Positions 4,699 through 15,790 are shown, counted from the stretch's first letter. The stretch: DNA of 64,000 nt from Escherichia coli (GCF_013122565.1 NZ_CP053258.1), one strand, 5' to 3'. Numbers and translations: made by a program. Notes: generated from the letters alone by a model not told the origin.

Positions 4699-7600
4699 TT
4701 ACGCCTCCTCTTCATGACGGGCAAAGCGACTTTTGGTCCACAATGCCAGGCGGTCGAACAGCAGATAAATCACCGGCGTGGTGAACAGCGTCAGCACCTG
4801 GCTGACAATCAGACCGCCGACCATGCCGATACCTAACGGACGACGCAGTTCCGCGCCGACCCCGGTACTCAACATCAGCGGCAGCGCGCCAAGCAGAGCC
4901 GCCAGGGTGGTCATCAGGATCGGACGAAAACGCAACAGACAAGCCTGGTAGATTGCATCGCGCGGCGACATGCCTTGCTCGCGCTCAGCAGCCAGCGCGA
5001 AGTCGATCATCATGATGGCGTTCTTCTTCACGATACCGATCAGCAAAATAATGCCGATAATCGCAATCACATCCAGTTCGCTACCGGCAATCATTAACGC
5101 CAGCAGTGCGCCAACACCTGCCGTGGGTAGCGTCGAGAGAATGGTGATCGGGTGAATAAAGCTCTCGTACAGAATGCCGAGCACGATATACATCGCCACC
5201 ACCGCCGCGACAATCAGCCAGACGGTGCTGCCCAGCGCCGACTGGAAGGCGAGGGTGCTGCCCTGGAACTGCGTGGTGATATCCACCGGCAGATTCAGAG
5301 TCTTTTCGGTGTCCATAATCGCCTGCACCGCATCGCCCAGCGAATAGTTATCCGGCACGTTAAAGGAGATGGTCGTTACCGGGAACTGATCCAGATGGTT
5401 GATGGAAAGCGGCGCAAAACGCTGCTCAATTTTGGCAATTGAGCTTAACGGCACCACGCCACCGTCGCTGCTGGTCAGGCGAATGGTATCCAGCGCCGCG
5501 AGGCCTGGGGTATTTTCGGTGTTGTGCTCCAGCACCACGCGATACTGGTTAGCCTGAGTATAAATAGTGGAAATCAGCCGCTGACCAAACGCGTTGTACA
5601 GGGCGTTATCGACGTCCGCCATGCTGATCCCCAGACGGCTGGCGCTGTCGCGATCAACATTGACATACGCCACCAGCCCTTTGTCCTGCCAGTCGCTGGA
5701 GACATCAGATAGCTGTGGCAGCTGCTGGAGTTTTTCCATCAACTGTGGCACCCAGGTACTGAGCGCATCCAGTGACGTGGCCTGCAAGGTAAACTGGTAC
5801 TGGGTGCGGCTGACCTGAGTATCGATGGTCAGGTCCTGCGTTGGTTGCAGGAAGAGATCGACGCCCGGCACTTTATCCACCGCCGTTTGCAGACGGGCGA
5901 TGACTTTTTGCACCCGATCATCACGTTCATCCAGCGGTTTGAGGTTGATCTGCAAACGCGCACTGTTCAGCGACGGGTTAGTGCCATCAACGCCAACAAA
6001 TGAGGTCAGACTTTGCACTGCCGGATCCTGCAAAATCACGTCCGCGACCTGGCGTTGCCGCTGGGCCATATTGGCAAAGGAGCTGGATTGCGGTGCCTGC
6101 AAAGTGCCCTGAATAATGCCGTTATCCTGTACCGGGAAGAAACCTTTCGGAATGAACACCCACAATAGAACGCTAAGCAGCAGCGTGCTGAGCGCCACGC
6201 TTAAGGTCAGCCACGGATGATTCAGCACTTTCGCAAGTCCCTGACCATAGGCGGCGATTATCCTGTCGAACATTTTTTCCGAGGCACGGGAGAAGCGGTT
6301 CTGTTTACGCAGTGACTCCTGGCTGAGCATCCGCGCGCACATCATCGGTGTCAGGGTCAGCGACACCACGGCTGAGATCAAAATCGCTACCGCCAGGGTA
6401 ATAGCAAATTCGCGGAACAGTCGCCCGACGATATCGCCCATAAACAGCAGTGGGATCAACACCGCAATCAGCGAGAAGGTCAGCGAGATAATGGTAAAGC
6501 CGATTTCACCCGCGCCTTTGAGCGCCGCCGCCAACGGTTTTTCGCCTTTTTCGATATAGCGGGAAATGTTTTCGATCACCACGATGGCGTCATCGACCAC
6601 AAATCCGGTGGCGATAGTTAACGCCATCAGCGTCAGGTTATTGATTGAAAAATCGAGAAACACCATGACCGCGAAGGTGCCGATTAACGACAGCGGCACT
6701 GCGACGCCGGGAATGATGGTCGCCGGAATATTGCGCAAAAACAGGTAGATAATCATGACTACCAGCGCGATAGCCATCATCAATTCAAACTGAGTATCAT
6801 CGACGGATGCGCGGATATTGGTGGTACGGTCAGAAAGTACCGTCACCTTCACCGATTTCGGCAGACTCTCGGTGAGCTGTGGCAGCATCTGCCGGATGCT
6901 GTCGGCGGTGGAGATAATGTTAGCACCGGGCTGGCGCTGAACATTCATCACAATGGCCTGTTCTTTGTTCGCCCATGCGCCGAGCCAGCTGTTTTCTGCA
7001 CCTTGCTCTACGGTTGCGACATCGCCCAGACGAATCGGCGCGCCGTTCTGGTAGGCGATGATTAGCTGGCGATACTCTTCGGCGGATTGCATCTGGTCGT
7101 TAGCGGAAAGCGTAACCGCACGGGAAGGGCCGTCAAGGCTACCTTTAGCCGAGTTAACGTTAGCGCCGGTAATGGCGGTGCGCACGGTTTCGCTGGTCAG
7201 GCCGAGGGCGGCAATCGCCTGAGCGTTAAGTTTGACGCGAACAGCCGGACGCTGGCCGCCGGAAAGCGTCACCAGACCGACGCCGGAAATCTGCGAGATT
7301 TTCTGCGCGACGCGGGTTTCCACCATATCTTCCACTTGCGTCATCGGCATGGCTGTTGAGGTGACGGCGAGCGTCATGATCGGCGGATCTGCCGGGTTCA
7401 CTTTGCTGTAAACCGGCGGGTTAGGCAGATCGCTCGGCAACAAGTTGGTCGCAGCGTTAATCGCGGCCTGTACTTCCTGCTCGGCGACATCCAGCGGTAA
7501 TGTTAGCTGGAACTGCAAAGTGATAACTGACGCACCGCCGGAACTTTGCGACGACATCTGTTTCAGACCAGACATCTGCCCGAACTGGCGTTCGAGCGGC

Positions 7601-7821
7601 GCGGTAACGGCAGAGGTCATGACATCCGGGCTCGCACCTGGGTAGAGCGTGACCACCTGAATGGTCGGATAGTCCACTTCCGGCAGCGCCGAAACGGGCA
7701 GGGCGCGATAACCGATAATCCCGGCGAGTAAGATCGCCACCATCAGCAGCGTGGTGGCCACAGGACGCATAATAAACAGGCGCGACGGGCCGCCTGTGCT
7801 GCTCGGGGGTAACACCTGCAT
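4699..7821 (-). CDS. mdtB: RND multidrug efflux pump subunit MdtB (1040 aa)
   Basis: 1040-aa RND-family ORF; its ATG overlaps the mdtA stop codon by 1 nt (TGATG), indicating translational coupling. Confidence 0.9.
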
Positions 7822-9068
7822 CAGGAGCGTGCTCCTTTTTTCGCGTATTCGCGGCTGGTGGCTTTCTCTTCCGAAGTGGTGGCGCTCTGGGCTTCCACCA
7901 CTTCCACTTTCGCCCCTTCGGTCAGGCGATCAATGCCGTCTGTCACCACGCGATCGCCCGCAGAAATACCTGCGCGGATCACCACTTTCTGACTGTCCTG
8001 AATGCCCGGCGTCACCAGATGTTTGCTGACCTTGTTTTCGCTATTCAGCACCCAGACAAAATGGCCTTCATTGCCCATTTGCAGGGCGGCTGTTGGGATC
8101 ACCACGGCGTTTTGTTCGGTGTCGACTAACATACGCGCGTTAACAAACTGATTGGGAAACAGCGCATCATCCTGATTATTAAAGCGTGCTTTCACTTTAA
8201 TCGTACCGGTAGTGGCATCGATTTGGTTATCGAGACTTAACAGCGTGCCTTCACTTAATTTCTTCGAGTTGGTGCGATCCCAGGCTTCTACCACCAGCGG
8301 TTTTCCGGTTTTTTGCGCCTGCACAACGGTAGCGATATCGCTTTCCGGCAGGGTAAAGACTAAATCGATAGGATGCGTCTGGGTGATCACCACAATCCCG
8401 GAGGTATCACCACTGGAGATTTGGTTACCAACATCAACCTGCTTGAGACCAACGCGACCATCGACTGGTGCGGTGATGCGGCTCCAGTCGAGTTGCAGCT
8501 GTGCGCTGGCGACGCTTGCTTCATCAGCCTTAATGGTGCCTTCGGTTTCACTGACCAGCGCCTGTTGGGCATCCAGTTCCTGACGAGATACGAGATTGGT
8601 TTTTGCCAGTTGTTGATAACGCGCCAGGTCACGGCGGGCGTTGGCGAGCGTGGCTTTATCTTTTGCCAGTTGGCCCTGGGCTTGTGCTAATGCAACTTTG
8701 AACTGGCTTGGGTCAATTTCTGCCAGTAAATCGCCTGCTTTGACCTGCTGGCCTTCCTGGAAATGTAACGCCATCAGTTGACCGTCCACGCGGCTGCGCA
8801 CCGTAACAGTATTAGCGGCGGTAATGGTGCCAAGCCCGGTGAGGTAACGCGGAACAGCCTGTTCTACTGCGGTCGCCGCCTGAACCGGAGCTAATGGGCC
8901 GGCACGCATACCACGGCGACCACCCGCTGGCGATTGCTGCGCTTGTTTCGTCGCCCCAGGGGCTGCACTCTGGGAGTCATTGCGGCCTTGCCAGAACCAG
9001 AATGCGGCGATGGCGGCGATAACCACCACGATTACGATTACCCAACGGGATTTATAACTGCCTTTCAT
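7821..9068 (-). CDS. mdtA: Membrane fusion protein (periplasmic adaptor) MdtA, 415 aa
   Basis: Track ORF 7821..9215 is 464 aa; I place the start at the internal ATG at 9068 ([16 protein letters not shown]...), which gives the expected 415 aa with a signal/TM N-terminus. The 49 upstream codons are probably not translated. Confidence 0.8.
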
Positions 9069-9121
9069 CGTTAAGAGTTTCTCTTCCTGAAACGTTTCGC
9101 GGAATGATACTAGTGTAGCCA

Positions 9122-9139
9122 GCCAATAAGGGAGAAAAA
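9122..9139 (-). promoter_or_regulatory. Putative BaeR response-regulator binding box upstream of mdtA
   Basis: Plus strand reads GCCAATAAGGGAGAAAAA; its reverse complement TTTTTCTCCCTTATTGGC matches the recalled BaeR consensus TTTTTCTCCATDATTGGC with one mismatch. Located about 55-70 nt upstream of the mdtA start. Confidence 0.55.
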
Positions 9140-9276
9140 TGGAGGAATTATGAAACACTATCGGGAATCGTCTGAATGGCGGGCACATTTGCGAGCACGC
9201 ATCCAGTAATAACACAGGAAACTATTTTATCTACGCGTTAGCGATAGACTGCTTGCATGGCGAAAGGAGGTAAGCC

Positions 9277-9420
9277 GACGATTTCAGCGGGACGCTGAAA
9301 CGGGAAAGCCCCTATAAGGAAAGGGTCATGATGAAGTGGATCATCATCGTGGTGCTCTTAGTCATAAGCTTCCCGGCTTACTAAGACTACCAGGGCGGGG
9401 GAAACCCCGCTCTACCCTCA
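9277..9420 (-). ncRNA. sib: Sib-family antisense sRNA (antitoxin) overlapping ibs copy 1; boundaries approximate
   Basis: Minus-strand sigma70-like promoter: TTGACA (plus 9450..9455 reverse-complemented), 17-nt spacer, TAATTT; the transcript would run antisense across the whole ibs ORF. Length set to about 140 nt by analogy with the known SibA/SibB RNAs. Confidence 0.6.
9328..9384 (+). CDS. ibs: Ibs-family type I toxin peptide, 18 aa (MMKWIIIVVLLVISFPAY)
   Basis: ATGATGAAG... ORF preceded by AAGGAAAGGG Shine-Dalgarno; hydrophobic peptide with the Ibs family signature MMK...VISFPAY. Confidence 0.8.
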   Translation: MMKWIIIVVLLVISFPAY

Positions 9421-9594
9421 CTCCTGAAATTATGCCTTCACGATAAGATTGTCAATCCGCAGGCTTTGTAGTCTGCGATCCTGCCAGCAAATATTCTTTG
9501 CGAGTCGTTACGCAATAATCACACTGGAAACTATTTTATCCGCAAGTCAGCGATAGACTGCATACAGGGCGAAAGGAGGTAAGCCGACGATTTC

Positions 9595-9738
9595 AGCGGG
9601 ACGCTGAAACGGGAAAGCCCCTCCCGAGGAAGGGGCCTTAAATAAGGAAAGGGTCATGATGAAGATACTCATCATCGTGGTGCTCTTAGTGATTAGCTAC
9701 CCAGCATACTAAGACTACCAGGGCGGGGGAAACCCCGC
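9595..9738 (-). ncRNA. sib: Sib-family antisense sRNA overlapping ibs copy 2; boundaries approximate
   Basis: Same minus-strand TTGACA/TAATTT promoter arrangement (TGTCAA at plus 9768..9773) as in copy 1. Confidence 0.6.
9656..9712 (+). CDS. ibs: Ibs-family type I toxin peptide, 18 aa (MMKILIIVVLLVISYPAY)
   Basis: Second repeat unit; same SD spacing and peptide architecture as copy 1. Confidence 0.8.
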   Translation: MMKILIIVVLLVISYPAY

Positions 9739-9939
9739 TCTACCCTCACTCCTGAAATTATGCCTTCACGATAAGATTGTCAATCCGCAGGCTTTGTAGT
9801 CTGCGATCCTGCCAGCAAATATTCTTTGCGAGTCGTTACGCAATAATCACAGAGGAAACTATTTTGTTCACGCGTTAGCGATAGACTGCATTCAGGGCGA
9901 AAGGAGGTAAGCCGACGATTTCAGCGGGATGCTGAAACG

Positions 9940-10083
9940 GGAAACCCTCTCCCGGAGAAGAGGGCTTTTAATAAGGAAAGGGTTATGATGAAGCACGTCA
10001 TCATACTGGTGATACTCTTAGTGATTAGCTTCCAGGCTTACTAAGAACACCAGGGGGAGGGGGAAACCTCTCCCTAACCCTCA
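9940..10083 (-). ncRNA. sib: Sib-family antisense sRNA overlapping ibs copy 3; boundaries approximate
   Basis: Minus-strand promoter with TTGACA (plus 10113..10118 reverse-complemented) and TAATTT after a 17-nt spacer. Confidence 0.55.
9985..10044 (+). CDS. ibs: Ibs-family type I toxin peptide, 19 aa (MMKHVIILVILLVISFQAY)
   Basis: Third repeat unit; ORF one codon longer than the other two and ending FQAY instead of FPAY. Confidence 0.8.
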   Translation: MMKHVIILVILLVISFQAY

Positions 10084-10264
10084 CTCCTGAAATTATGTCA
10101 CTCCGCCCTTAGTGTCAATCGACGGCTCTCCGTTCTTGCGAGGCGAATAGCAAAATTTTCTGCGCCGCCGGGCCTAATTCTGAAAGTTTCTTCGTTTGCT
10201 CTTATTTCATTATTGCAATCGGTATGATACCGGACCTCGATAATTCTCTAAGAAAGGATTTCTT

Positions 10265-10924
10265 ATGAGCGAACAAATCACGTTTGCCACCAGCGATTTT
10301 GCCAGTAACCCGGAACCACGTTGCCCCTGCATTTTGCTGCTGGATGTTTCTGGTTCGATGAACGGTAGACCCATTAATGAACTTAACGCCGGATTGGTTA
10401 CCTTTCGCGATGAGCTGCTTGCCGATTCGCTGGCCTTAAAAAGAGTGGAACTCGGTATTGTGACGTTCGGCCCGGTGCATGTGGAACAACCATTTACCAG
10501 CGCCGCTAATTTTTTCCCGCCCATCCTGTTTGCCCAGGGCGATACACCAATGGGGGCCGCCATTACCAAAGTCCTGGATATGGTTGAGGAGCGCAAACGT
10601 GAGTATCGTGCAAATGGTATTTCGTATTATCGCCCGTGGATTTTCCTGATCACCGATGGCGCTCCAACCGATGAGTGGCAGGCTGCCGCCAACAAAGTGT
10701 TTCAGGGGGAAGAAGATAAGAAGTTTGCCTTCTTTACCATCGGTGTGCAGGGGGCGGATATGAAGACGCTGGCACAAATCAGCGTTCGTCAGCCTTTGCC
10801 ACTGCAGGGATTACAATTCCGTGAACTGTTTAGCTGGTTATCCAGTTCACTGCGTTCGGTTTCCCGCTCCACGCCGGGAACGGAAGTTGTGCTGGAAGCA
10901 CCAAAAGGCTGGACGTCAGTGTGA
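10265..10924 (+). CDS. yegL: von Willebrand factor A (vWA) domain protein YegL, TerY-like (219 aa)
   Basis: 219-aa ORF with a MIDAS-type motif ([11 protein letters not shown]) near the N-terminus; stop overlaps the start of the next gene (GTGA). Confidence 0.85.
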
Positions 10925-11682
10925 GCTGGCGTCTGGTCTATGCATCAACCGTTGGAACGTCGCACATCAGCGCGGACTTGCCTTGCCAGGATGCCTGCCA
11001 GATGCAGGTTGCCTGGTTAAATGACCAGCAGCCATTATTGTCGGTATTTGTCGCTGATGGCGCAGGCAGTGTCTCGCAGGGTGGCGAAGGCGCGATGCTT
11101 GCCATCAATGAAGCGATGGCTTATGTGTCGCAAAAAGTGCAGCACGGTGAATTTGGACTCAATGATATCCTCGCCACGGATATTGTGCTGACCGTTCGTC
11201 AGCGACTTTTTGCCGAGGCGGAAGCCAAAGAATTAGCAGTTCGCGATTTTGCCTGCACGTTTCTGGGATTGATTTCATCGGCTAACGGCACCTTGATTAT
11301 GCAGATTGGCGATGGCGGCGTGGTGGTGGATTTTGGTCACGGTCTGCAATTACCGCTTACGCCGATGGTGGGTGAATATGCCAATATGACGCATTTCATT
11401 ACCGATGAAGATGCCGTTTCCAGACTGGAAACTTTCACCATCACTGAGCGTGTGCATAAAGTTGCAGCATTTACGGACGGTATCCAGCGACTGGCGTTAA
11501 ATATGTTGGATAATTCTCCGCATGTGCCTTTCTTTACCCCGTTTTTCAATGGACTGGCGTCAGCAACGCAGGAACAACTCGATTTATTACCTGAATTGTT
11601 AAAGCAGTTTTTGTCCAGCCCGGCGGTAAACGAGCGTACGGATGATGATAAAACGTTGGCACTGGCGCTGTGGGCAGAGTGA
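10921..11682 (+). CDS. yegK: PP2C-family Ser/Thr protein phosphatase YegK (253 aa)
   Basis: 253-aa ORF starting at a GTG that overlaps the yegL stop; PP2C-like motifs ([24 protein letters not shown]). Confidence 0.8.
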
Positions 11683-11691
11683 GTTTCTCAT

Positions 11692-11719
11692 GGCGGTTGA
11701 AGACAACAATTCAACCGCC
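11692..11719. terminator. Hairpin between the convergent genes yegK and yegJ, possible bidirectional terminator
   Basis: GGCGGTTGAA-GACAACAA-TTCAACCGCC: perfect 10-bp stem with an 8-nt loop; the flanking U-tracts are weak. Confidence 0.5.
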
Positions 11720-11746
11720 AGTTTAAGCAATCAATATAACGGCTGA

Positions 11747-12208
11747 TTAGCGAACTAATTTTGCTCTTAGCTCGTCGGCTTCTTCTTTTGGATAGGTGAC
11801 CAATAAAGGATCAATGGTATAACCGCCGTAAATTTTATCCCCGCGCGTATACATCCAGTCTGAAATATCTTCTTTCTTGATTTTCCACTCCTGGCCATAT
11901 TCTACGTTTGTAACAATACCAGGGTCATTGCTGATTACGCCAATAAACATGCCGTTAGAATAAGTGACATCCGTAAGCCAGAAATGCTCGGTTCTTCCGT
12001 GATCGGTTATCGGGGCTTTGACTGCGAAAGTATCGGCATCTTTTTTATTCATAACCTCGATGAATTTATCGGTTTCTTTCCGCGCATGTTTAATCGCGTC
12101 AGACATCGCTTGTTTATCATAACCTCCTGTCACTAACGTATCCGAAACTTCACAATAGCCTGCGGTAGTAAAACATAGCAGGCTCAACATGAGTAATATC
12201 TTTTTCAT
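11747..12208 (-). CDS. yegJ: Secreted/periplasmic protein YegJ, unknown function (153 aa)
   Basis: 153-aa ORF with an N-terminal signal peptide (MKKILLMLSLLCFTTAGYC); position between yegK and yegI. Confidence 0.75.
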   Translation of the reverse strand: MKKILLMLSLLCFTTAGYCEVSDTLVTGGYDKQAMSDAIKHARKETDKFIEVMNKKDADTFAVKAPITDHGRTEHFWLTDVTYSNGMFIGVISNDPGIVTNVEYGQEWKIKKEDISDWMYTRGDKIYGGYTIDPLLVTYPKEEADELRAKLVR

Positions 12209-12405
12209 TTTTTCTCCAGAATCTCTGTGTAGTAAAAGTTAGCAAAACCTGTGGAAGTTAATCATTATCAGGTTGGAATTGAATTGTATCCTGATGAAAT
12301 TACATTATCATTTTTATTCTTGAGTGGGCTCTTCCCATATAGAAATAATTATAATGGGCAGTGTTATTATTCATTGAAATATAATATTACTGCCCTTGAA
12401 ACATT

Positions 12406-14352
12406 ATGAAGACAAATATAAAAGTATTTACATCAACAGGTGAAATGACCACTCTCGGTCTTGAACTGGGCAAAGGTGGCGAAGGTGCGGTTTATGATAT
12501 CGAGGAGTTTGTCGATAGCGTCGCTAAGATTTATCACACGCCGCCACCCGCCTTAAAACAGGACAAACTTGCCTTTATGGCTGCGACAGCTGACGCGCAG
12601 TTGTTGAATTATGTCGCCTGGCCGCAGGCAACGCTTCACGGTGGACGAGGCGGAAAAGTTATCGGTTTTATGATGCCAAAAGTTTCTGGTAAAGAACCGA
12701 TTCATATGATCTATAGCCCGGCACATCGTCGCCAGAGTTACCCTCATTGTGCGTGGGATTTTCTACTCTATGTTGCGCGCAATATTGCTTCATCTTTTGC
12801 TACGATTCACGAGCACGGGCACGTCGTGGGTGACGTAAACCAGAACAGCTTTATGGTAGGTCGCGACAGCAAAGTGGTGTTGATTGATAGCGACTCCTTT
12901 CAGATTAATGCCAATGGCACGCTGCATTTATGCGAAGTCGGCGTGTCGCATTTTACGCCGCCAGAGCTACAAACCTTGCCATCATTTGTCGGCTTTGAAC
13001 GCACCGCGAATCACGATAATTTTGGCCTTGCGTTGCTGATTTTTCACGTCTTGTTTGGTGGGCGGCATCCTTATTCTGGTGTGCCGCTTATCTCTGATGC
13101 GGGGAATGCGCTGGAGACGGATATTGCCCATTTCCGTTATGCCTACGCGTCAGATAATCAGCGACGTGGTTTAAAACCGCCGCCACGATCGATTCCGCTG
13201 TCGATGTTACCGGGCGATGTTGAAGCCATGTTTCAGCAGGCATTCACGGAAAGTGGCGTGGCAACCGCGCGTCCGACGGCAAAAGCGTGGGTAGCGGCAC
13301 TTGATTTACTACGCCAACAGTTAAAGAAATGTACCGTTTCGGCAATGCATGTTTACCCCGGTCATTTGACTGACTGCCCGTGGTGTGCGCTGGATAATCA
13401 AGGCGTTATCTATTTTATTGATCTCGGCGAAGAGGTCATTACCACCAGTGGTGATTTTGTGCTGGCGAAAGTCTGGGCGATGGTGATGGCGTCAGTAGCA
13501 CCGCCAGCATTGCAATTGCCATTACCCGATCATTTCCAACCGACTGGCCGGCCGCTTCCTTTAGGCCTGTTACGGCGCGAATACATCATTCTGATTGAGA
13601 TCGCACTGTCAGTGTTATCGCTGTTGCTTTGCGGCCTTCAGGCAGAACCGCGTTATATTATTTTGGTTCCTGTGCTGGCGGCTATCTGGATTATTGGCAG
13701 CCTGACAAGCAAAGCGTACAAAGCAGAAGTCCAGCGACGAAGAGAGGCTTTTAATCGCGCGAAAATGGACTATGATCATTTAGTCAGCCAGATCCAACAA
13801 TTGGGCGGGCTGGAAGGTTTTATCGCCAAACGGGCGATGCTCGAAAAAATGAAGGACGAAATTCTCGGGTTACCGGAAGAAGAGAAACGCGCTCTGGCAG
13901 CACTTCATGACACTGCAAGGGAACGGCAGAAGCAGAAGTTTCTGGAGGGATTTTTTATTGATGTTGCCTCTATTCCCGGCGTTGGCCCTGCGCGTAAAGC
14001 GGCGTTACGGTCCTTTGGTATTGAAACAGCAGCGGATGTTACCCGTCGTGTCGTTAAGCAAGTGAAAGGGTTTGGTGATCATCTGACCCAGGCAGTTATC
14101 GACTGGAAAGCAAGTTGCGAACGCCGTTTTGTGTTCAGGCCGAATGAAGTGGTAACGCCAGCAGACAGACAAGCGGTAATGGCGAAAATGACCGCCAAAC
14201 GACATCGGCTGGAATCGGCGTTGACTGTCGGCGCGACAGAGTTGCAGCGATTCCGCCTTCATGCTCCAGCACGGACCATGCCGTTGATGGAACCTTTACG
14301 TCAGGCGGCAGAAAAACTGGCTCAGGCGCAGGCAGATTTAAGCCGCTGCTGA
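12406..14352 (+). CDS. yegI: Protein-kinase-like protein YegI (648 aa)
   Basis: 648-aa ORF; N-terminal region has glycine-rich GLELGKGGEGAVY and catalytic-loop-like HGHVVGDVNQNSFMV...IDSDSF motifs; central hydrophobic segment; C-terminal coiled-coil-like region. Confidence 0.8.
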   Translation: MKTNIKVFTSTGEMTTLGLELGKGGEGAVYDIEEFVDSVAKIYHTPPPALKQDKLAFMAATADAQLLNYVAWPQATLHGGRGGKVIGFMMPKVSGKEPIHMIYSPAHRRQSYPHCAWDFLLYVARNIASSFATIHEHGHVVGDVNQNSFMVGRDSKVVLIDSDSFQINANGTLHLCEVGVSHFTPPELQTLPSFVGFERTANHDNFGLALLIFHVLFGGRHPYSGVPLISDAGNALETDIAHFRYAYASDNQRRGLKPPPRSIPLSMLPGDVEAMFQQAFTESGVATARPTAKAWVAALDLLRQQLKKCTVSAMHVYPGHLTDCPWCALDNQGVIYFIDLGEEVITTSGDFVLAKVWAMVMASVAPPALQLPLPDHFQPTGRPLPLGLLRREYIILIEIALSVLSLLLCGLQAEPRYIILVPVLAAIWIIGSLTSKAYKAEVQRRREAFNRAKMDYDHLVSQIQQLGGLEGFIAKRAMLEKMKDEILGLPEEEKRALAALHDTARERQKQKFLEGFFIDVASIPGVGPARKAALRSFGIETAADVTRRVVKQVKGFGDHLTQAVIDWKASCERRFVFRPNEVVTPADRQAVMAKMTAKRHRLESALTVGATELQRFRLHAPARTMPLMEPLRQAAEKLAQAQADLSRC

Positions 14353-14364
14353 GCCATTTTTCAA

Positions 14365-15717
14365 TTAACGAAACACCACTTCCGCCCAGCGTGCCAGCCC
14401 GGCGGTGACGGAGCCAAAGTCATCGCCGCCTGCAATCGGAATGCCCGGCAACTGTTCTGCCAGCGCTTTTTTAATCAGCGGAGAACGGGCGCTACCGCCG
14501 GTCAGGTATATAACGTCCGGTTTTTCCTGGGCGTTATCCAGGGCCAGTTGCACCTGTTCCAGAATCCGCGCCAGTGGCTGGCTGAGGGCGCTTTCCAGCC
14601 CTTGCTGGCTAATCAGCGTAGCCAGTTCATCGCTAATAAACGGCAGTGAGGCGCGGGTTTCCGCAGTGCTGGAAAGAGCAATTTTGCTCTCTTCTGCGCT
14701 ACGCACCAGGCGATAGCTTAAACGCTGACGCCAGACTTTCTGTAGCAGGGCCACTTTTTCCGGTTCGCGGGCATCGCGTACCAGATCGTTAAGCAGACGA
14801 CCGTTGGCACTACTGTAGAAATCACTCTGCGCAGGAACGTCGTTGATGGCAACCGCATTCCACCACGGCAGAATCGGCAGGGCGATGCCTTTTTCGGTTT
14901 CGCCACCCATGCCCAGTAACGGCATCAGGTTTTTAAACGCCAGCGCGATATCCAGATCGTTACCGCCAATACGGCAACCACTGTGACCGAGCAGGCTGGC
15001 TTCACGATCGAGACGCGAACGCCACTGCGGCCCCATCAGCAGCAATGAACAGTCAGTCGTACCACCGCCGATATCCACCACCAGCACCCGTTTTTCTTCC
15101 TGCAAGGTGGCCTCGTAATCCAGCCCAGCTGCTACCGGCTCGTACTGGAATACCACATCCTTAAACCCGGCACGCTTTGCCGCGCGTTCCAGAATTCCTT
15201 GCGCCTGAGCGTTTGCTTCATCACCCCCCAGCCCCTGGAAGTTGATCGGGCGACCAATCACCGCCTGAGTAATCGCTTCTGGCAGCTGCGCCTGCGCCTG
15301 CTGGCGAATGTGCAACATCATTGCGCAGACCAGATCCTCAAACAGCGCTACCTGCTGCGGTTTTAAGCCGCTGGCACCGAGGAACGATTTTGGTGATTTC
15401 ACAAACCACACTTCTTCTGGATCATCAATGTACTGTGCCAGTGAGGAAAGACCGAACTGCACGCTTTTCGCCGTAACATCGATATCTTCTTCGCGGTTAT
15501 AACGAATCGCCCGACGTAACAGCGCCTGCGTTTCATCGTCGTCTGCCGGAACATCATGATGGCGGTACAGCCATTCGCTTACCGCTTCACGCGTTGGCGC
15601 GCAAAGCATTGAAGGCAGCAGCGTGCTGTCGTTTTCCATTTTTAGCAAGTGCGGTTTACCGTCACGCATGACCGCCACTGAACAGTTTGCTGTACCGTAA
15701 TCAAAACCAATAAACAC
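14365..15717 (-). CDS. yegD: Hsp70-family (actin-like ATPase) protein YegD, 450 aa
   Basis: Track ORF is 471 aa from an upstream ATG; I place the start at the GTG at 15717 (V/M-FIGFDYGTANCSVAVM...), which gives the typical Hsp70 N-terminus and 450 aa. Confidence 0.75.
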   Translation of the reverse strand: MFIGFDYGTANCSVAVMRDGKPHLLKMENDSTLLPSMLCAPTREAVSEWLYRHHDVPADDDETQALLRRAIRYNREEDIDVTAKSVQFGLSSLAQYIDDPEEVWFVKSPKSFLGASGLKPQQVALFEDLVCAMMLHIRQQAQAQLPEAITQAVIGRPINFQGLGGDEANAQAQGILERAAKRAGFKDVVFQYEPVAAGLDYEATLQEEKRVLVVDIGGGTTDCSLLLMGPQWRSRLDREASLLGHSGCRIGGNDLDIALAFKNLMPLLGMGGETEKGIALPILPWWNAVAINDVPAQSDFYSSANGRLLNDLVRDAREPEKVALLQKVWRQRLSYRLVRSAEESKIALSSTAETRASLPFISDELATLISQQGLESALSQPLARILEQVQLALDNAQEKPDVIYLTGGSARSPLIKKALAEQLPGIPIAGGDDFGSVTAGLARWAEVVFR

Positions 15718-15790
15718 GAAATAATCCCCATGCCGGTGAAGAAGGGGCGTGACTTTAGCGAAATGTTGCCGTCGCGACAACCGGAATATG

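Follow-up and report, generated by a model that had tools for sequence, protein, structure and literature searches.

The yegL-pphC-yegJ-yegI locus

Within a stretch of 64,000 nucleotides from Escherichia coli (GCF_013122565.1, NZ_CP053258.1; at its full length referred to here as the window), we analyzed a gene trio, yegL, yegK (pphC), and yegI, together with yegJ, which lies inside it. The open reading frame (ORF) listing places yegL at 10265–10924 on the plus strand, where it encodes an intact, 219-residue TerY-like von Willebrand A (vWA) protein. It is followed on the same strand by pphC at 10921–11682, an intact ORF with a GTG start that encodes a 253-residue Ser/Thr phosphatase that is PP2C-like, and by yegI at 12406–14352, an intact ORF for a 648-residue protein that begins 723 bp past the yegK stop codon. 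Between the latter two genes, yegJ (11747–12208, minus strand) encodes an intact DUF2314 protein of 153 residues with an N-terminal signal-like segment. An initial sequence-only reading of this region had described yegL and yegK as coupled by a GTGA overlap and yegI as lying about 700 bp downstream and carrying a membrane segment. Reading of the junction confirmed that the yegL stop codon and the yegK GTG start share GTGA, and the measured distance and the two hydrophobic segments described below are in accord with the second description. The region corresponds to the E. coli yegL-pphC-yegJ-yegI locus, with approximately 96–97% nucleotide and protein identity to the known orthologues, and RefSeq names the four products vWA domain-containing protein, protein-serine/threonine phosphatase PphC, YegJ family protein, and protein kinase YegI. 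The trio is already named, annotated, and biochemically characterized in E. coli.

YegL matches the Pfam VWA family (E = 8.6e-10) and retains a complete metal-ion-dependent adhesion site (MIDAS) composed of Asp27, Ser29, Ser31, Thr94, and Asp131, the first three within the motif D27-V-S29-G-S31-M, in agreement with the earlier description of yegL as a vWA gene with the MIDAS motif DVSGSM. A Ser-rich motif near the C-terminus (W191-L-S193-x-S195...S200-x-S202) is also conserved, and both the MIDAS and the tail residues are at least 93% conserved across 61 homologs. YegL is the most conserved member, with a median identity among homologs of 66% versus 42% for YegK. YegK, likewise described beforehand as PP2C-like, matches Pfam PP2C_2 (E = 2.3e-50) and is an active PP2C-like phosphatase in E. 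coli (10.1101/303594). Residues Trp3, Gly12, His15, Cys22, and Asp24 of PphC, all upstream of Met28, show at least 93% conservation, in favor of the long pphC ORF with its GTG start. In vitro, PphC dephosphorylates YegI and YegI phosphorylates PphC (10.1101/303594, 10.1101/819920). The sole yegK entry in a chemical-genomics reanalysis is an unexplained phenotypic correlation between yegK and mhpB.

Domain organization of YegI

Residues 1–304 of YegI (12406–13317, plus strand) form a divergent Hanks-type Ser/Thr kinase domain, whose recognizable motifs are a P-loop (G22xGGEG27), Lys41, H137-G-H-x-x-G-D143, D161-S-D163, T184-P-P-E187, and Asp204. A Pfam search of YegI gave no Pkinase match, and a sequence-profile search of the PDB returned only matches to TTK, at E~0.1; sequence alone is therefore insufficient to call a kinase, and our assignment is instead made because the fold, the conserved catalytic residues, and published biochemistry agree. 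A first AlphaFold2 run with 20 close homologs gave a predicted local distance difference test score (pLDDT) below 50 for the kinase domain and was repeated with 35 diverse sequences. The predicted model has a bilobal protein-kinase fold that is closest to PknB. Within it the P-loop, Lys41, Asp143, Asp161, and the TPPE motif are conserved, while HGD stands where HRD would be expected, DSD where DFG would be, and Ser at the position of the catalytic Asn. The published description likewise notes VGDxxQxS instead of HRDxxxxN and DSD instead of DFG, and reports YegI to be an active, Mn2+-preferring kinase whose autophosphorylation targets serines of the activation loop and follows second-order, dimer-like kinetics (10.1101/303594, 10.1101/819920). 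The K39D and D141N mutants of REL606 YegI are dead in the same studies, and these two residues correspond to Lys41 and Asp143 in the window protein. The journal versions of both preprints (Rajagopalan & Dworkin, J Bacteriol 2018 and FEBS Lett 2020) are cited in PMC13232886. The term "kinase-like," used for YegI in the sequence-only reading, is borne out by the kinase fold, the catalytic residues, and the published activity and has no counterpart in a Pfam Pkinase match; as wording it is partly outdated.

The kinase domain is followed at residues 305–331 (13318–13398, plus strand) by a predicted zinc-binding module with candidate ligands Cys309, His315, His320, and C324-P-W-C327. In the 35-sequence alignment, which includes a kinase from a ter-linked triad, Cys309, Cys324, Pro325, and Cys327 are invariant and His315 is at least 90% conserved. 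The module is modeled with high pLDDT as a beta-hairpin plus helix (strands 306–308 and 316–318, helix 325–331).

Further along, residues 393–435 (13582–13710, plus strand) constitute a transmembrane hairpin of two hydrophobic segments, 393–411 and 417–435 (hydropathy 2.44 and 2.07), joined by a loop of about 5 residues that leaves no periplasmic domain. This layout matches the published topology, in which YegI crosses the inner membrane two times and has its two termini in the cytoplasm (10.1101/303594, 10.1101/819920). The hairpin is retained in 50 of 55 YegI homologs. The five homologs without any hydrophobic segment (L027, L030, L042, L043, and L057) come from Planctomycetota, Methylococcaceae, and cyanobacteria and are about 30 residues shorter past the zinc module; judged by their sequences, they are possibly soluble variants. 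Planctomycetota homologs (L054–L060) instead reach 900–1,065 residues with a much longer tail. In five other genomes (L002, L003, L019, L022, and L025), including two Escherichia species, the sequence homologous to YegI is divided between two ORFs, which suggests frameshifts or stop codons, and L025 has an additional kinase fragment about 5 kb away.

The C-terminal third of YegI, residues 441–648 (13726–14349, plus strand), consists of a coiled coil, two helix-hairpin-helix (HhH) motifs, and a long C-terminal helix, all modeled confidently (pLDDT ~90). The HhH motifs lie at about residues 517–575 and read IPGVGPARKAAL... and VKGFGDHLTQAV...; residues 517–552 give a weak match to Pfam HHH_5 (E = 0.0024). 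No Pfam family covers the coiled-coil-(HhH)2-helix module, and a PDB sequence search with it yielded only a marginal match to the Rad51 N-terminal (HhH)2 region (E = 0.15). An exhaustive search with residues 441–648 recovered 1,218 cluster representatives at E≤1e-10, mostly YegI-type proteins of about 645 residues; over a thousand clusters at 50% identity carry the module. It also occurs in kinase-less proteins, always beside transmembrane segments, where its partners include TPR repeats (P0202, P0152), a TonB C-terminal domain (TonB_C; P0199), a tail that by eye resembles peptidoglycan-binding domains (P0179, P0229), and N-terminal zinc ribbons (P0199, P0254, P0186). Because it is found without the kinase and in combination with other domains, we regard it as a portable juxtamembrane module.

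Relationship to the TerY-P class

In the definition of Anantharaman, Iyer & Aravind (2012), as relayed in passages of PMC11090510 and PMC4978471, TerY-P denotes a set of three proteins: a vWA protein resembling TerY, an enzyme of the PP2C-like type, and a Ser/Thr kinase that carries a zinc ribbon fused to its C-terminus (PMC11090510). Our reference was a ter-operon-linked triad of the kind carried by IncHI2/IncFIB plasmids for tellurite resistance, that of K. variicola pINF352_2 (locus L068), in which TerY (vWA plus TerY-C) is followed by the PP2C protein (577 aa) and the kinase (499 aa), the same vWA, PP2C, kinase order as in the window. YegL aligns with ter-plasmid TerY paralogs at 31% identity (E = 1e-25) and 27% identity (E = 8e-19), and the W-[LIV]-S-x-S motif near the C-terminus is common to both. 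The plasmid matches listed for YegL comprise E. coli-derived copies, about 29 records of 60–80% identity, and otherwise TerY paralogs of ter plasmids. YegK and the ter PP2C protein, which is likewise of the PP2C_2 type, share 27% identity over 153 residues (E = 1e-5), with common VADGAGS, GDG, and GEYA-x-T-x-F motifs. YegI aligns with the ter kinase over the end of the C-lobe and the zinc module (E = 1e-5), and a profile of 20 YegI homologs aligns with it in hhalign at 85% (E = 5.9e-6) across residues 6–339, about 315 columns. The zinc modules differ: the C-x4-C...CPYC of the ter kinase corresponds to C-x5-H...CPWC in YegI, with His in place of one Cys in the first knuckle.

The two cassettes also diverge in what surrounds these shared cores. 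The TerY-C domain is missing from YegL, PphC is without the N-terminal extension of about 330 residues found in the ter PP2C protein, and YegI is about 300 residues longer than the ter kinase owing to its transmembrane hairpin and coiled-coil-(HhH)2 module. Neither TerD, TerZ, TerW, TerC, nor biosynthetic ter genes occur in the E. coli neighborhood or in seven other loci that we annotated with Pfam. The window trio nonetheless combines co-location, a TerY-like vWA protein with its MIDAS, a homologous PP2C enzyme, and a kinase with a predicted zinc module. These sequence comparisons support assigning the trio to a conserved, TerY-P-type cassette that is homologous to the ter triad leg by leg; the match to the TerY-P triad proposed in the sequence-only reading is thereby given direct homology of each leg and the same gene order. 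In the searchable literature, we found no paper that mentions yegL together with TerY-P.

PADLOC, run at E≤0.01 and at E≤10, made no TerY-P call in the window: YegL reached E = 0.057 against the TerY model, YegK had no match, and YegI matched only the generic defense kinases PD-T4-6 and MkoA at E≥2e-4. The same TerY-P models also fail on the canonical ter-plasmid triad, which we used for calibration; the PADLOC negative is therefore weak and excludes the narrow Gao variant only. That stand-alone anti-phage system (Gao 2020) is, in the passages of PMC11090510 and PMC7699616 that concern it, likewise a three-gene vWA, PP2C, and Ser/Thr kinase cassette able to stand alone. In PMC11090510 its kinase is described as carrying an OB fold in place of the zinc ribbon, whereas in YegI this end is made up of the transmembrane hairpin, the coiled coil, the two HhH motifs, and the long terminal helix. 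The TerY-P triads of CoCoNuT types II and III-A comprise, as here, a TerY-like vWA protein with a perfect MIDAS, a PP2C enzyme, and a Ser/Thr kinase with a zinc ribbon (PMC11090510), but they sit in McrBC-like CnuBC/CnuHE operons, and neither the window nor any of the seven annotated loci has such genes beside the trio. YegI is also unlike the kinases of the M. tuberculosis PknB/PstP and B. subtilis PrkC/PrpC pairs, as it has no extracellular PASTA or other sensor domain, bears HGD, DSD, and Ser in place of HRD, DFG, and Asn, and has an obligate vWA partner.

Distribution and linkage of the trio

A one-genome-per-species scan of GTDB r220 with conserved YegI peptides yielded 66 loci that span about ten phyla, covering Beta-, Gamma-, Alpha-, and Deltaproteobacteria, Planctomycetota, Acidobacteria, Cyanobacteria, and Actinomycetota, as well as Chloroflexota, Armatimonadetes, Nitrospira, Myxococcota, and Deinococcus. 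We searched the ORFs of these loci iteratively with hidden Markov models, and 57 loci had at least 1.7 kb of upstream sequence. YegL, YegK, and YegI are colinear and adjacent on one strand in 55 of the 57; the exceptions are a locus with a 2-kb gap (L045) and a Deinococcus locus without either upstream gene (L064). Co-occurrence of the three genes, which the sequence-only reading had put forward as a check, is thus far beyond chance. Identity is about 60% between the E. coli and Betaproteobacteria homologs, while within Enterobacteriaceae identities show a gap between 90% and 63%, a pattern that suggests horizontal transfer. Members of the family are also found on megaplasmids such as Pseudomonas pQBR103.

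Clustering of 1,691 flanking ORFs revealed no fourth recurrent gene, with two exceptions of limited range. A protein of about 380–440 residues, with a GYF-like N-terminus (identified by eye) and transmembrane segments, is encoded 120–1,800 bp upstream in five loci from different phyla (L010, L018, L023, L056, and L060). In a betaproteobacterial subset (L069:7932–8474, L073:7917–8501, L005, L006, L017, and L036), a signal-peptide-bearing, staphylococcal-nuclease-like (SNase) gene lies directly upstream of yegL on the same strand; the clustering counted it in 4 closely related loci, and L073 has a second SNase gene downstream. On sequence grounds, the SNase could be a lineage-specific accessory or effector.

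The PHROGs families phrog_28389, phrog_37072, and phrog_37888 match YegL, YegK, and YegI near-identically and at full length (508–1516 bits). No phage genome in the INPHARED collection carries yegL, yegK, or yegI, and we rejected phage carriage of the trio; the PHROG families probably stem from prophage predictions that include host flank.

The yegJ insertion

Between pphC and yegI, the window contains an AT-rich insertion of about 750 bp (11675–12424; GC content ~0.40), which replaces a pphC/yegI overlap of about 20 nt. Its bounds follow from alignment with yegJ-less Escherichia loci (L001, L003, and L028) and from the dip in GC content. The insertion rewrites the last pphC codons and the first six or so codons of yegI, and it carries yegJ and divergent promoter-like sites. 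Because it separates the genes, yegI is uncoupled from yegL-pphC in the window. Megablast of the region against 5,426 complete E. coli genomes located the insertion in 1,933 of them (36%), and yegJ is present in none of the 66 other loci, four other Escherichia lineages included. Previous work found yegJ in K strains only, with pphC and yegI overlapping by ATGA in REL606 and O157:H7 (10.1101/303594, 10.1101/819920).

YegJ matches Pfam DUF2314 (E = 2.9e-25), and its hydrophobic residues 4–22, within an N-terminus that reads MKKILLMLSLLCFTTAGYC..., resemble a signal peptide and predict export. The placement of a signal-peptide protein on the opposite strand between yegK and yegI was therefore described correctly beforehand; its designation as a secreted partner of the trio does not stand, given the distribution of the insertion. 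yegJ is cargo of the insertion and not a member of the cassette. In a 2026 paper, a bacterial two-hybrid screen is reported to show binding of YegJ to the N-terminal, cytoplasmic half of RNase E, an interaction that is hard to reconcile with predicted export. From this interaction and from yegD induction, the paper speculated that YegJ is a member of the pathway. The distribution data argue against a conserved YegJ role.

Several signals lie in the insertion. A hairpin with a 10-bp perfect stem and an 8-nt loop (11693–11720; GGCGGTTGAA...TTCAACCGCC) is situated between the convergent ends of pphC and yegJ; since it lacks a T-run, calling it a terminator would be a guess. A scan for sigma-70 promoters identified ATGATA-17-TACAAT on the minus strand (12283–12311) as the putative yegJ promoter, and the K-12 yegJ promoter has the same hexamers, with H-NS marked in the spacer (table of Shimada et al. 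2014, PMC3946193). For yegI, the K-12 promoter is given as TTGTTA-18-TATAAC (PMC3946193). These exact hexamers are absent from the window, where the orthologous site, two substitutions away, reads GTGTTA-18-TATTAC (12362–12391, plus strand) and marks the putative yegI promoter position. A 7-bp inverted repeat, GGGCAGT...ACTGCCC (12357–12395), encloses the AT-rich stretch with the putative -35 and -10 elements of yegI, 11 nt before the yegI ATG.

Genomic setting in E. coli

The locus is flanked on one side by mdtB, mdtA, and Ibs toxin genes and on the other by yegD, alkA, and dgcE. The upstream neighbors mdtB and mdtA occupy 4699–9215. Between them and yegL, three tandem repeats of about 330 bp (9313–10118) each contain an Ibs-type toxin ORF of 19 codons (MMK...AY*, plus strand) and a full-length SIB_RNA antitoxin on the minus strand. 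The three Rfam SIB_RNA matches score 141–150 bits and identify type I toxin-antitoxin copies, so that the toxin-antitoxin array and the efflux operon noted in the sequence-only reading are both in place. The nearest RefSeq genome also has three Ibs copies, one annotated as a pseudogene. The usual description of K-12 has two at this site (ibsA and ibsB). Downstream, yegD (14365–15780) encodes an Hsp70/actin-like protein, which has a short, weak PADLOC match (27 residues, E = 1e-5) to PDC-M61B, a protein of a candidate system; the match probably reflects no more than a common ATPase motif. We rejected YegD as a partner of the trio, as it is a neighbor in Escherichia only.

In the set of 5,426 genomes, yegI was found in 5,410, and in 5,401 at 80% coverage or more. 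The K-12 locus has the same genes, order, overlaps, and yegJ insertion, the same YegI length of 648 residues, and the same DSD and HGD loops; unlike it, the window is at most about 97% identical to any genome in the collection and has three Ibs/Sib copies upstream. For positions 9200–14400 the best match is 96.5–97.3%, despite this being a core region, while the yegJ insertion has a best match of 98.9%. The lineage of the window seems to have no close representative among these genomes.

Discussion

We propose, with a probability of roughly three in four, that the conserved core of this locus is a three-gene phosphorylation switch of the TerY-P type that is anchored at the membrane and has a DNA-linked stress or conflict output. 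In such a switch, the YegI kinase would be held at the membrane as a dimer, and its cytoplasmic coiled-coil-(HhH)2 module would read a signal, most likely DNA or a membrane-proximal partner, that leads to trans-autophosphorylation of YegI. The YegL MIDAS would read, or be controlled by, a phospho-site, for which its own Ser-rich tail and the kinase are candidates, and PphC would reset the switch by removing phosphates. The output would most likely be a DNA-linked stress or conflict response and not routine growth control. In the window, the H-NS-bound insertion of about 750 bp separates yegI from yegL-pphC and provides yegI with a putative promoter of its own. Of this scheme, the enzyme activities and the topology come from experiment, while the signal, what YegL does, and the output are our inference. 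An earlier statement that the role is essentially unknown still applies to physiology and no longer to enzymology, since the activities of PphC and YegI are published and the proteins carry RefSeq names.

The proposed output draws on genomic neighborhoods and on one functional screen. The seven Pfam-annotated loci, all from outside Escherichia, represent six independent contexts because two Klebsiella loci share a flank. In three of the six, known defense genes occur within about 6 kb of the triad: in Piscinibacter (L069) it lies amid genes for an SLFN-like helicase, ScoMcrA_N/NOV_C, MazG-like, SNase, BrxR, and JetB proteins; in Chromobacterium (L070) its neighbors are AbiH and a KAP NTPase, and a Tn7-like tnsABC/tniQ module lies 4.3 kb away; and in a metagenomic locus (L075) it adjoins a type I restriction-modification (R-M) system and Mrr. 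In K. spallanzanii, a distance of 3.1 kb separates the triad from GmrSD downstream, and SymE and a type I R-M system follow 5–10 kb out. The carriage of family members on megaplasmids leans in the same direction. Furthermore, a genome-wide overproduction screen returned YegL (rated "strong") and YegI (at least 5-fold) as independent DNA-damage-up hits. Taken together, defense-rich neighborhoods and DNA damage upon overproduction hint at a DNA-linked stress or defense role.

A number of observations weigh against this proposal. The neighborhood sample is small, six contexts with no formal background, and one of them (L074) is also in a housekeeping context. In E. coli, yegI is a core gene among housekeeping genes, unlike a typical mobile defense island, and PADLOC recognizes none of the three proteins as TerY-P. 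MdtA and MdtB are hits in the DNA-damage screen as well, and the phenotype arises from overproduction. The characterization of PphC and YegI found no condition under which the locus is expressed and describes no in vivo substrate, signal, or phenotype (10.1101/303594, 10.1101/819920). The HhH module, given that it recurs in envelope-associated proteins, may serve dimerization or partner binding. As a separate observation, the four hits MdtA, MdtB, YegL, and YegI are encoded within about 10 kb.

A dedicated anti-phage or anti-mobile-DNA system is a tentative possibility; here the membrane kinase would sense incoming DNA via its (HhH)2 motifs and trigger a phosphorylation-dependent abortive or DNA-directed response. 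TerY-P-like triads, including the Gao 2020 variant, are reported in passages of PMC7699616 and PMC11090510 to protect against T7-like phages. The cassette would suit such a role in being self-contained without a fixed neighbor, in lying in defense-rich surroundings or near a Tn7-like element in several non-Escherichia loci, in its carriage on megaplasmids and the identity jumps that suggest horizontal transfer, and in the DNA damage that follows YegL or YegI overproduction. Its C-terminus is however not an OB fold, it has no PADLOC TerY-P match, and in E. coli yegI is a core gene in a syntenic position. No nuclease, toxin, or other effector is encoded in the cassette, and no phage phenotype for yegL, pphC, or yegI is found in the searchable literature. 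K-12 is sensitive to T7-like phages though it carries the locus, which counts against a defense system. Rather doubtful, in our view, is that YegI and PphC form a housekeeping Ser/Thr pair in the manner of PrkC/PrpC or PknB/PstP and tune the physiology of the envelope or of stationary phase, with YegL as an accessory scaffold and no conflict role. The core status of the gene in E. coli, the closeness of the kinase fold to PknB, and the sharing of the C-terminal module with envelope proteins that contain TonB_C, TPR, or peptidoglycan-binding-like domains would be expected of such a pair. The patchy phylogenetic distribution with its transfer-like identity jumps, the plasmid and transposon-proximal copies, the missing periplasmic sensor domain, and homology to the ter-linked TerY-P triad rather than to PASTA-type kinases would not, nor would the split ORFs in several genomes and the yegI mutations cited as recurring in the long-term evolution experiment.

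These last two observations, namely the splits in L002, L003, L019, L022, and L025 and the recurrent mutations, are also what one would predict if the locus were a silent, decaying remnant, that is, an ancient, horizontally acquired cassette that is silenced by H-NS, under relaxed selection in Escherichia, and without current function. The lack of an expression condition in published work, H-NS in the spacer, and the uncoupling of the operon by the yegJ insertion point the same way. Set against them are three intact ORFs in the window, retention of yegI at 80% coverage or more in 5,401 of 5,426 genomes, strict conservation of catalytic, MIDAS, and zinc-ligand residues, and the published activity of the purified proteins, and we consider a remnant highly unlikely. 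Least credible of all is a four-component system with secreted YegJ as a functional partner. Its position between pphC and yegI is the argument for it, whereas yegJ resides on an AT-rich insertion that disrupts the ancestral pphC/yegI overlap, is transcribed oppositely from its own promoter, and occurs in 36% of complete E. coli genomes and 0 of 66 other loci.

A more specific and more speculative version of the membrane-anchored switch, which we think improbable as it stands, is that YegL, YegK, and YegI define a distinct, widespread TerY-P subtype in which the membrane-tethered module senses a DNA or envelope event, for example phage genome injection or conjugative entry, and the phospho-switch, turned on by YegI, turned off by PphC, and read by the YegL MIDAS, triggers a DNA-directed response. 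If true, core E. coli genes silenced by H-NS would be a cryptic immune or stress sensor, and the DNA damage observed upon YegL or YegI overproduction would be explained.

The remaining interest of the locus lies in the physiology of the trio and in the undescribed juxtamembrane HhH module. For such work K-12 is unsuitable, because yegJ is an insertion that disrupts the operon in its evolved form; the intact pphC-yegI overlap is found in B strains or O157. Ser/Thr kinases are very few in E. coli, and YegI/PphC is the only Hanks-kinase/PP2C pair described there. The TerY-P assignment, now supported by direct homology and by co-occurrence across genomes, places this pair and the overlooked YegL in a class that yields testable hypotheses in the best-equipped model organism, namely that YegL may be a MIDAS-dependent phospho-reader, that YegI may contain a zinc module and sense DNA at the membrane through its HhH motifs, and that the trio may act in conflict or stress.

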